DNA of 4,236 nt. Source: Escherichia coli. GTDB lineage: Bacteria > Pseudomonadota > Gammaproteobacteria > Enterobacterales > Enterobacteriaceae. The stretch lies in assembly GCF_024298765.1 (NCBI RefSeq), contig NZ_CP101215.1, one strand, 5' to 3'. The number at the start of each line of letters is the position of its first letter. Position 1 is the first letter of the stretch. Positions 2,975 through 4,236 of the stretch are shown here, in pieces. The notes under the pieces were generated by a model. It did not search any database. It was not told the origin of the DNA and saw nothing but the letters and a program-made list of their open reading frames with translations. Position numbers and translations under genes: made by a program.

Positions 2975-2995
2975 GTTATCTGATAAGGCTATTTG
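2953..2995 (-). other. ColE2-type origin of replication (Rep-primed ori) immediately 3' of rep
   Basis: The minus strand reads CAAATAGCCTTATCAGATAACAGCGCCTTTTCGGCGCTTTTTTGAGC, starting in the last codons of rep. From memory, the ColE2-P9 minimal origin contains AGATAAGCCTTATCAGATAACAGCGCC just downstream of rep; the exact base-by-base match is not verified here. Placement directly after the rep stop fits the known ColE2 architecture. Confidence 0.6.
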
Positions 2996-3897
2996 TGCAT
3001 TGCCCAATTACGGATCGTATTTCGATGTACATCCAGCATCGCCGCAATAGCTTTCTGAGAATATCCATTCTCCAGCATACATAGCGCCATGAAACGCTTG
3101 TCCTCGTAGGCTTCGCCTTTAGCAAGGCCACCTTTCCGGCCTCGAGCGGCCTGTACAGCGGAAAAGCCTTCCGGTGAGAATTTTCTGTGCGTGTATTTCG
3201 CAATGCTCTTGCCAATAGCCCGGCATTCAGCCAGTGAAAGAGGAACGGGAAGCGATGCGTTGTACATTTCGACACGCTGGATCACGGCATCAAGCCACTG
3301 TGAGAATGCTGGCCATCCCTGACGAATCGCTCTGTAAGCCCATTTGCGCGTCATTTCGAACAGGTGGCAGTTTCGCCCCATCCCGTAATGTTTATCGATG
3401 CTACGACGCTCTGAGGCGCTCAAATCGAGATAATCTGCCAGTTCATCGAGGGTATAGGCTTCCTCGCGCCACTCCATCACCTGCCATTCCAGGTGGAACG
3501 GATTTTTGCAAATCAGTCCGCTGTAGTTCACATCAGCACAAAGTTTCTCACACAGCGAACGTTCAATCGCGGCAGCATATTTCAGCGCCTTAACCGACGC
3601 ATCAGGCGCGGTTCTCACGGCGATATTGAGTGCATAGAGCAGGTGAGCGTGTCCGTTCACAGGATTTTTAACGGTGATGTTCGGCGCGGGGGCGTTCCGG
3701 TCGCTCCAGTCAATCGCTGCCCCCTCGCGGTCAACGTCAAAAACCAGCCAGAACTGCGCATGAGGCTGGTTCTGCTGGATGTACCGCGCAAGAAGCGCAC
3801 GCCCTTTGCCGGAGATGCGAAGGCCGAAAGCGAGATCATCCGTGTGATAGGGACGGTGGGGTAAATTTTCTTCGAAGTATTGAAGCGCGGCGCTCAT
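2989..3897 (-). CDS. rep: ColE2-family plasmid replication initiator / plasmid-specific primase Rep (302 aa)
   Basis: ORF 2989..3897 (-). RBS GGAAGGAA about 10 nt upstream of the ATG at 3897-3895; stop TAG at 2989-2991. The protein has long stretches I recognise from ColE2-P9/ColE3 Rep: YIQQNQPHA, DWSDRNAPAPNITVKNPVNGHAHLLYAL, VRTAPDAS, YAAAIERSLCEKLCADVNYSGLICKNP, YTLDELADYLDLSA, LFEMTRKWAYRAIRQGWPAFSQWLDAVIQRVEMYNASLPVPLS, ECRAIGKSIAKYTHRKFSPEGFSAVQAARGRKGG. The C-terminal tail (…ENGYSQKAIAAMLDVHRNTIRNWAMHK) looks like a helix-turn-helix, consistent with origin binding. Confidence 0.92.
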   Translation of the reverse strand: MSAALQYFEENLPHRPYHTDDLAFGLRISGKGRALLARYIQQNQPHAQFWLVFDVDREGAAIDWSDRNAPAPNITVKNPVNGHAHLLYALNIAVRTAPDASVKALKYAAAIERSLCEKLCADVNYSGLICKNPFHLEWQVMEWREEAYTLDELADYLDLSASERRSIDKHYGMGRNCHLFEMTRKWAYRAIRQGWPAFSQWLDAVIQRVEMYNASLPVPLSLAECRAIGKSIAKYTHRKFSPEGFSAVQAARGRKGGLAKGEAYEDKRFMALCMLENGYSQKAIAAMLDVHRNTIRNWAMHK

Positions 3898-3996
3898 GTG
3901 TTACGATTCCTTCCAGGTTATCGACCGACATCGCCCCTGTATTTTCGTGACAGTCTTGCCGGATAGGCACGAATTTCAGGGGCGTTTGTTTTTTCT
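3880..3996 (+). ncRNA. Putative antisense RNA (ColE2 RNA I-like) complementary to the rep mRNA leader and start region
   Basis: Established knowledge: ColE2-type replicons control Rep translation with an antisense RNA of about 115 nt (RNA I) complementary to the rep 5' leader. Seen in sequence: a strong plus-strand terminator (stem 3932-3939 with 3977-3984, then TTTGTTTTTTCT) ends at 3996 inside the rep leader. The 5' end is inferred from the expected length; no convincing promoter was identified by eye. Confidence 0.35.
3932..3996 (+). terminator. Rho-independent terminator (hairpin plus T-run) on the plus strand within the rep leader region
   Basis: Seen in sequence: CGCCCCTG (3932-3939) pairs with CAGGGGCG (3977-3984), a perfect 8-bp GC-rich stem around a 37-nt loop that may fold further. 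It is followed immediately by TTTGTTTTTTCT (3985-3996). Confidence 0.5.
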
Positions 3997-4054
3997 GGCG
4001 CTTACCCTACACCCAAACGCCAAACCCTGTCGATCCTTCCCCAAAACCCGATCC

Positions 4055-4082
4055 ATTTACCATAACTCCCGTTGTACGTACC
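4055..4082 (-). other. Xer (XerC/XerD) site-specific recombination core site, cer/psi-like with 6-bp spacer
   Basis: The minus strand reads GGTACGTACAA-CGGGAG-TTATGGTAAAT. Compared with the ColE1 cer core as I recall it (GGTGCGTACAA-TTAAGGGA-TTATGGTAAAT), the XerD arm is identical and the XerC arm differs at one position. The central region is 6 bp, as in dif and psi, rather than the 8 bp of cer. Confidence 0.6.
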
Positions 4083-4236
4083 CTCTAAAACGCTCTCAGA
4101 CGCGTTCTGACGCAAAAAACGCAAAAAGACAAGGAAACACCAGGCTGAACCAGAAAAATGCGTCAGAATCGTTTTTAGGGCGCTGCATAACTATGCACGA
4201 AAGCGATGCGCGATCGGTTTCGACCGTTCAGAAGCG
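4083..4236 (-). promoter_or_regulatory. Putative Xer accessory sequences (cer-like), including an ARG-box-like palindrome; truncated by the window edge
   Basis: Established knowledge: cer-type sites need about 180 bp of accessory sequence on the XerC-arm side, with an ArgR box about 100 bp from the core. Seen in sequence: palindrome TGCATAACTATGCA at 4184-4197, about 105 bp from the XerC arm, matching TGnAT-N4-ATnCA of the ARG-box consensus at 8 of 10 core positions. Also a 10-bp inverted repeat, TTCTGACGCA (4105-4114) and TGCGTCAGAA (4159-4168), flanking an A-rich stretch. Confidence 0.4.

Follow-up and report, generated by a model that had tools for sequence, protein, structure and literature searches.

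A probable Rcd-type hairpin RNA gene in the cer-like resolution site of a small ColE2-type plasmid of Escherichia coli

The closest described system to the locus studied here is cer of plasmid ColE1, from which the Summers laboratory described the Rcd RNA and its promoter Pcer (reviewed in PMC4393325). Rcd is a single stem-loop RNA, given as 70 nt and elsewhere as 90 nt, that is transcribed from Pcer within cer; it is induced in dimers and acts on tryptophanase, raising indole and delaying division. The -35 and -10 elements of Pcer are separated by 15 bp (PMC5935869), and a conserved 15-nt loop sequence of Rcd was reported by Sharpe et al. 1999, as cited in the same paper. The genes rcd and RNAII are always co-directional, read-through from RNAII encounters ArgR/PepA ahead of XerCD, and phased A-T tracts curve the cer DNA between the ArgR site and XerCD (PMC2831885). 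In the ColE1 record, Rfam places RNAI on the minus strand, and therefore RNAII lies on the plus strand, which is also the strand on which cer reads from the ARG box through XerC to XerD. At the centre of cer, TTGCAT and TAAAAT lie 15 bp apart and overlap the ARG box, and a long inverted repeat follows directly. We assigned Pcer to this pair from secondary descriptions, the sequence and the central position in cer that Chatwin and Summers (2001) reportedly gave for Pcer. Another pair, TGAACG-15-TACAAT overlapping the XerC site, was rejected on account of this central position, and also since ArgR was tested as a repressor of Pcer, since XerCD is said to repress Pcer 'by proximity', and since the covarying sense-strand hairpin reported below lies upstream of XerC, not downstream.

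Two further kinds of Xer site bear on the comparison with the window, by which we mean the whole stretch of 4,236 nucleotides that was analysed. The sites psi (of pSC101) and dif have 11-bp XerC and XerD half-sites around a 6-bp central region, like the window, but they have no ARG box and no Pcer/rcd module; the accessory region of the window is cer-like, not psi-like. Multimer resolution sites related to that of ColE2 are attributed to Hiraga et al. 1994, as cited in PMC6856555 and PMC2831885, and a cer-like site has been reported for the ColE2-type subgroup of MOBQ4 plasmids (PMC6856555). These ColE2-related sites belong to the same plasmid type as the window, with a ColE2-type Rep and a MOBQ4 relaxase, and as in the window they lie directly upstream of rep and co-directional with it.

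The window is a whole 4.2-kb ColE2-type plasmid (Col156, MOBQ4), and the stretch tested matches pEF5-18-41_6, an E. coli plasmid of 4237 bp typed as Col156/MOBQ, with 100% identity. On its minus strand it encodes a MobA_MobL relaxase (Pfam) of 739 aa in an intact reading frame at 110-2329 and a ColE2-type Rep at 2989-3897, in which Pfam recognizes Replicase, PriCT_1 and a C-terminal helix-turn-helix. The Xer core, given as read on the minus strand, occupies 4055-4082 as GGTACGTACAA-CGGGAG-TTATGGTAAAT. Its XerC-binding half-site GGTACGTACAA (4072-4082) has one mismatch to the ColE1 half-site GGTGCGTACAA, and its XerD-binding half-site TTATGGTAAAT (4055-4065) is identical to that of ColE1 cer. 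The central, or crossover, region CGGGAG (4066-4071) has 6 bp and that of ColE1 cer, TTAAGGGA, has 8 bp. Xer central-region length influences which recombinase exchanges strands. Among 144 collected cer-like sites the central region was 8 bp long in 71, 7 bp in 26 and 6 bp in 47, and CGGGAG was the most frequent 6-bp form (34 of the 144), so the 6-bp central region separates the window site from cer proper, not from the wider cer-like group. The palindrome TGCATA-AC-TATGCA (TGCATAGTTATGCA) at 4184-4197, aligned with ColE1 TGCATAGGTATTCA, is a candidate ArgR site, which we take to be an ARG box by the consensus of such boxes. It agrees with the layout of cer-type sites, whose ARG box is found about 100 bp upstream of the core in some 180 bp of accessory sequence. 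The accessory region extends over 4083-4236 on the minus strand and, the plasmid being circular, runs on past the junction for about 30 bases from position 1. By these parts the site is a cer-like Xer dimer-resolution site, and a dependence on XerCD, ArgR and PepA may be expected by analogy with ColE1.

Within this region, TTCTGACGCA at 4105-4114 and TGCGTCAGAA at 4159-4168 are exact reverse complements of 10 nt each, as the earlier note on this DNA had claimed from inspection of the letters. Its placement of the repeat in an accessory region was likewise borne out, because the Xer core and the ARG box flank the repeat. The arms cannot be extended into their flanks, CTCAGACGCG and TCGTTTTTAG. 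The spacer at 4115-4158 has 44 nt and is A-rich (A26 C9 G8 T1), in agreement with the description given, although the spacer string then quoted was wrong: it has 45 letters and includes the final A of the left arm. By its own statistics the repeat is not significant, because dinucleotide shuffles of the 4236-nt window contained on average 0.40 perfect 10-bp inverted repeats with spacers of at most 60 nt and at least one in 26% of cases; the actual window has three. The repeat is thus statistically unremarkable, and its reality as a feature must therefore rest on its context and on its conservation.

As for the context, when the minus strand is read towards the core, the order is GTGCAT, 15 bp, TAAAAA, three bases, the two arms with their loop, the motif GCGTTTTAG and XerC. 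The -35-like hexamer GTGCAT (4193-4198) aligns with TTGCAT of ColE1 and the -10-like hexamer TAAAAA (4172-4177) with TAAAAT of Pcer, lacking the final T of the consensus. Both hexamers are weaker than their ColE1 counterparts, and GTGCAT is a poor -35, but the 15-bp spacing was retained in almost all of 89 sites. On the sense strand there follow the 5' arm UUCUGACGCA (4159-4168), a U-rich loop of 44 nt (4115-4158) whose bases are also the phased A/T tracts, and the 3' arm UGCGUCAGAA (4105-4114). A weak second hairpin, ACGC-GUCUGAGA-GCGU, is predicted after the main stem (4090-4105) and is not a canonical terminator. A UUUU run (4087-4090) in the GCGTTTTAG motif marks the probable 3' end region of the RNA, and this motif directly upstream of XerC is kept in all three families of sites considered below. 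The loop block CTTTTTG is invariant in 46 relatives of the window. The ARG box has a different sequence from the arms, at a distance of 16-30 bp from them. We place the putative transcription start by the -10-like element. If it lies about 7 nt past this element, six or seven of the ten bases of the 5' arm would be included in the RNA, and the outer one to four bases may precede the start.

In terms of folding, the minimum-energy structure has a 9-10-bp stem closing the 44-nt loop, 64 nt in total. The hairpin is weak (-20.8 kcal/mol; z of the full RNA about -0.5 to -1.4), and folding energy does not discriminate, the plus strand of the bare repeat folding equally well. A scan of 3800-4236 on both strands gave no promoter or terminator; its promoter spacers were limited to 16-18 bp, and the negative result for promoters is uninformative because such a range cannot detect the Pcer class with its 15-bp spacer. 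Rfam gave no match for the repeat region of the window and none for the rcd of ColE1 itself, and because Rfam has no Rcd model, an RNA of the Rcd type is overlooked by standard annotation. Two other uses of the repeat were considered and rejected. A terminator on the plus strand does not fit, since the loop, with its 44 nt, is unlike that of a terminator and the run of T is merely the complement of the -10-like TAAAAA. Cruciforms are disfavoured for 10-bp arms with a 44-bp spacer, and extrusion was rejected as unfavourable.

On the one hand, the arrangement resembles that of ColE1 in position and form. Both the Rcd hairpin and the putative hairpin of the window lie between the ARG box and XerC and are read towards the core, both are preceded by a -35/-10-like pair with a 15-bp spacer that overlaps the ARG box, both are single stem-loops of about 64-80 nt with a U-rich loop, and both are followed by the GCGTTTTAG motif before XerC. 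On the other hand, the two also differ. The stem of the window has 10 bp and an open 44-nt loop, whereas that of ColE1 has about 14-18 bp and an inner helix; the ColE1 hairpin is far more stable (-38 kcal/mol, z -4.8, against -20.8 kcal/mol); the -10-like element is TAAAAA instead of TAAAAT; and the arms have nothing in common in sequence. In the loop, GGGTGGTTTGTTGCC, the most conserved block among ColE1-type sites, shows partial identity to the corresponding CTGGTGTTTCCTTGTC of the window and is thus loosely kept. The earlier note had tied the element to its presence in functional homologous resolution sites; in ColE1 cer the repeat sequence is absent, but an analogous stem occupies the same place.

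For the comparative analysis, 144 cer-like sites (109 of them unique) were collected from plasmid records, genome contigs and metagenome contigs with the XerD half-site as the anchor. A loose scan of genome contigs with GTACAA-N6-8-TTATGGTAAAT gave mostly chance matches in unrelated phyla, and 11 loci were true cer-like sites. The 109 unique sites fall into three sequence families, each with a stem at the position of the repeat and each with different bases in it. When 35 sites of the ColE1 type and of a second type were analysed with RNAalifold, they gave a 14-bp stem in which six pairs were retained through two-sided changes. The cells of this alignment that depart from Watson-Crick pairing comprised 72 wobbles and 5 mismatches when the sense strand was read, against 2 and 75 for the antisense strand. 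Wobble on the sense strand only is the signature of an RNA helix, here a putative one on the strand that runs from the ARG box to XerC. A covariance model (R1) built solely from these 35 sequences found a single significant match in the window, at 4084-4177 on the minus strand (19.7 bits, E about 4e-4, full-length), and aligned the two arms of the window to opposite sides of the model stem.

In the family to which the window belongs, conservation of the repeat in related plasmids, proposed earlier as a check, was found: over 46 distinct sequences 93.5% of the stem cells pair, compared with 25-49% when partners are slid. The variation within this family is less telling. Its sole two-sided change concerns one pair, from A-U to G-C in four sequences; mismatches at two positions are uncompensated; and in the pooled 46 sequences there is no strand bias (25 wobbles and 30 mismatches on the sense strand, 27 and 28 on the antisense strand). 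These sites vary in their -10-like element, about 40% having TAAAAA and about 60% either TGAAAA or TGAAAG, and the two subgroups differ. The TAAAAA subgroup (n=20, including the window) has 13 wobbles and 2 mismatches on the sense strand against 1 and 14 on the antisense strand, keeps on average 9.9 of the 10 pairs, has all 10 in 18 of the 20 sites, and contains all four of the A-U to G-C double changes. The TGAAAA/TGAAAG subgroup (n=26) keeps 8.9 of 10 pairs and has 28 sense mismatches. Where the 3' arm has a C at the variable position, a G that restores the pair occurs in 4 of the 5 sites with TAAAAA and in none of the 10 with TGAAAA. This contrast fits a promoter-plus-hairpin unit that would be maintained in one lineage and be decaying in another; the pattern may rest on few independent events, the sequences being related. 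The sites of the second type also have TAAAAA, together with the strongly covarying 14-bp stem. From its conservation and from its positional match to the covarying stem in other cer-like sites, the repeat is confirmed as a real feature.

We consider that the repeat probably forms the stem of a small RNA encoded by an Rcd-type gene, which is read on the minus strand within the cer-like site of this plasmid, and we give this reading a probability of roughly 70%. Three computed observations carry it: the correspondence in position and structure to the ColE1 hairpin, the exchange of stem bases between families with pairing preserved by compensatory changes, and the dependence of the wobble pattern on the strand. 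The window element is most likely a diverged copy of a known element and nothing new in kind. Transcription, the transcript ends and an Rcd-like activity in the window plasmid are what the analogy with ColE1 would predict. The earlier note had named a regulatory hairpin as one option after protein binding and DNA bending, and this option comes close to the explanation preferred here, an Rcd-like stem in an RNA that we infer from the sequence.

By this reading, a Pcer-like promoter (GTGCAT, 15 bp, TAAAAA) overlapping the ARG box would drive an RNA on the minus strand that contains, in order, the 5' arm (4168-4159), the 44-nt U-rich loop, the 3' arm (4114-4105), the weak second hairpin and the UUUU run, with the XerC, 6-bp central and XerD sites (4082-4055) following downstream. 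[quoted passage not shown] The stretch would also double as accessory sequence, in which the phased A/T tracts may aid curvature in the recombination complex.

An alternative that we consider rather unlikely is that the repeat is a vestige of an Rcd hairpin that has lost its expression or function in ColE2-type plasmids and is still there because little time has passed since the divergence or because the accessory DNA is under constraint. Such decay would account for a -10-like element that is degenerate in every window-type site, for the 28 sense mismatches of the TGAAAA subgroup, for the thermodynamic weakness of the hairpin and for the poor retention of the conserved loop block. However, the window belongs to the TAAAAA subgroup, in which 18 of 20 sites keep all 10 pairs and the wobble and compensatory changes have a sense-strand bias, and the second-type sites combine the same TAAAAA with their strongly covarying 14-bp stem.

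It is unlikely that the arms and A-tracts act purely as DNA architecture, only shaping or binding the PepA/ArgR accessory complex with no RNA involved. The location of the repeat in the accessory region would agree with such a role, as would the distance between the arm centres (54 bp, about five helical turns), the high conservation of arm sequence inside the window-type family and the missing strand bias in its pooled data. The spacer has A-tracts at 4114-4119, 4123-4127, 4135-4137 and 4154-4158, and the periodicity of its A/T tracts has a power peak at 9.5-10 bp (1.42 and 0.91, compared with 0.04-0.39 at other periods). Because this phasing matches that of the tracts described for cer, the earlier suggestion of a bending element holds for the spacer. 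For the arms, a role as PepA/ArgR-binding elements is unlikely: the ArgR box stands apart from them at 4184-4197, and arms that are quite different in sequence remain complementary in families that share the same host proteins, which suggests base pairing more than recognition by a protein. The sense-only wobble (72/5 against 2/75 in the other families and 13/2 against 1/14 in the TAAAAA subgroup) is, moreover, a property of RNA and not of duplex DNA. The spacer thus probably has two roles at once, as architecture for recombination and as part of the Rcd-type RNA.

That the repeat is a functionless product of chance is very improbable: shuffled sequence does yield such a repeat in a quarter of cases (26%), but this one is retained across 46 distinct relatives, coincides with the covarying stem of other families and was singled out by an independent covariance model, and with these conservation data the chance origin is effectively refuted. 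A small protein gene is the least credible reading of all, since the 30-codon frame across the repeat (4096-4188, minus strand; MQRPKNDSDAFFWFSLVFPCLFAFFASERV), despite being open over 30 codons in 48 sites and 27 codons in 14, varies least at codon position 3 (0.118, compared with 0.176 and 0.159), stays open in 36% of shuffles of the U-rich stretch, has no Shine-Dalgarno sequence, begins at an ATG, lacking in ColE1, that lies within the ARG box upstream of the -10-like element, and gives peptides that are not conserved between families. We also rejected as probably spurious a 137-aa hypothetical protein (WP_023143259.1 in RefSeq; locus L255 of pLAO25, 149-562) that some records annotate across the cer-like site, on the strand opposite to rcd. 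Its frame is open in pLAO25 only because of an A-to-G variant in the arm, and in the window it is closed by a TGA at 4108-4110 within the repeat arm. The view that no coding feature explains the repeat stands for proteins, but its position corresponds to that of an RNA gene, the rcd of ColE1.

Returning to the Rcd-type RNA gene as the preferred reading, its weight for basic biology is small: a module already known for plasmid stability, a cer-type site that would contain an Rcd-like RNA, is assigned to a family of small plasmids that is very common in E. coli and Salmonella and in whose records the region is unannotated. Of practical value, the association of stem integrity with the state of the -10-like element would be a cheap, testable handle on whether the dimer checkpoint is retained or lost in each plasmid lineage. 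A more specific idea, which we regard as speculative and quite unlikely, is that the ColE2-type rcd is a reduced and distinct variant, with a 10-bp stem, a U-rich loop of 44 nt that is open, and no strong terminator. Lying directly upstream of the rep control region and co-directional with it, this variant might pass the sensing of dimers on to the expression of Rep, in place of the tryptophanase/indole checkpoint or besides it. The TGAAAA lineages, in which the stem is being lost, would then be natural instances of checkpoint loss in widespread small plasmids and in IncF plasmids that bear the module.

The cer-like region of the window is matched by about 1,890 plasmids in PLSDB, about 420 of which are conjugative. 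These roughly 420 large conjugative plasmids, mostly IncF, have the same cer-like site at about 89% identity, and for one of them, pPA45B, typing also gave a small-plasmid rep cluster, from which it seems that a Col156-type module has been integrated in F-type plasmids. Four loci (L127, L215, L226 and L238) are hybrid sites that combine a window-type accessory region, with the arms TTCTGACGCA or TCCTGACGCA ... TGCGTCAGAA, with a ColE1-type core, GGTGCGTACAA-T(T)AAGGGA. Such hybrids would be expected to arise if Xer acts between different plasmids in one cell and exchanges the sequences flanking the crossover.

Several minor features of the plasmid were also seen. The sequence TAAGTGCGC at 2407-2415 resembles a MOBQ nick-site motif. 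It lies in the mobA-mobC intergenic region (2330-2507), which is exactly 178 bp long if mobA starts at the ATG giving MAIYHLS; 178 bp is the length reported for the oriT-containing mobA-mobC region of MOBQ4 plasmids (PMC6856555). The putative MobC of 91 aa had no match in Pfam. The sequence GGCGCTGTTATCTGATAAGGCT at about 2960-2995 has the look of a ColE2-type replication origin. On the minus strand it comes immediately after rep, whose stop codon it overlaps, and the origin of ColE2-type plasmids is positioned downstream of rep (PMC6856555). At 3862-3985 on the minus strand, a sub-threshold match to the Rfam family PK-repBA (28.8 bits, with a gathering score of 45; E 0.0018) spans a long hairpin in the rep leader, and this segment is probably the control region of the ColE2-type Rep mRNA and its antisense RNAI, not a true member of PK-repBA. 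The public record NZ_CP063498.1 has 4237 bp compared with 4236 in the window, and its PLSDB gene table, from which pseudogenes are omitted, contains three CDSs only, with a 1089-nt 'hypothetical protein' where the window has the intact 739-aa MobA_MobL frame; the discrepancy may be due to a one-base difference or to an incomplete gene table. Just past the end of mobA on the minus strand, a 21-nt inverted repeat at 37-81 (arms 86% complementary and 3 nt apart) precedes a T-run and is likely the transcription terminator of mobA, immediately upstream of the cer-like accessory region.
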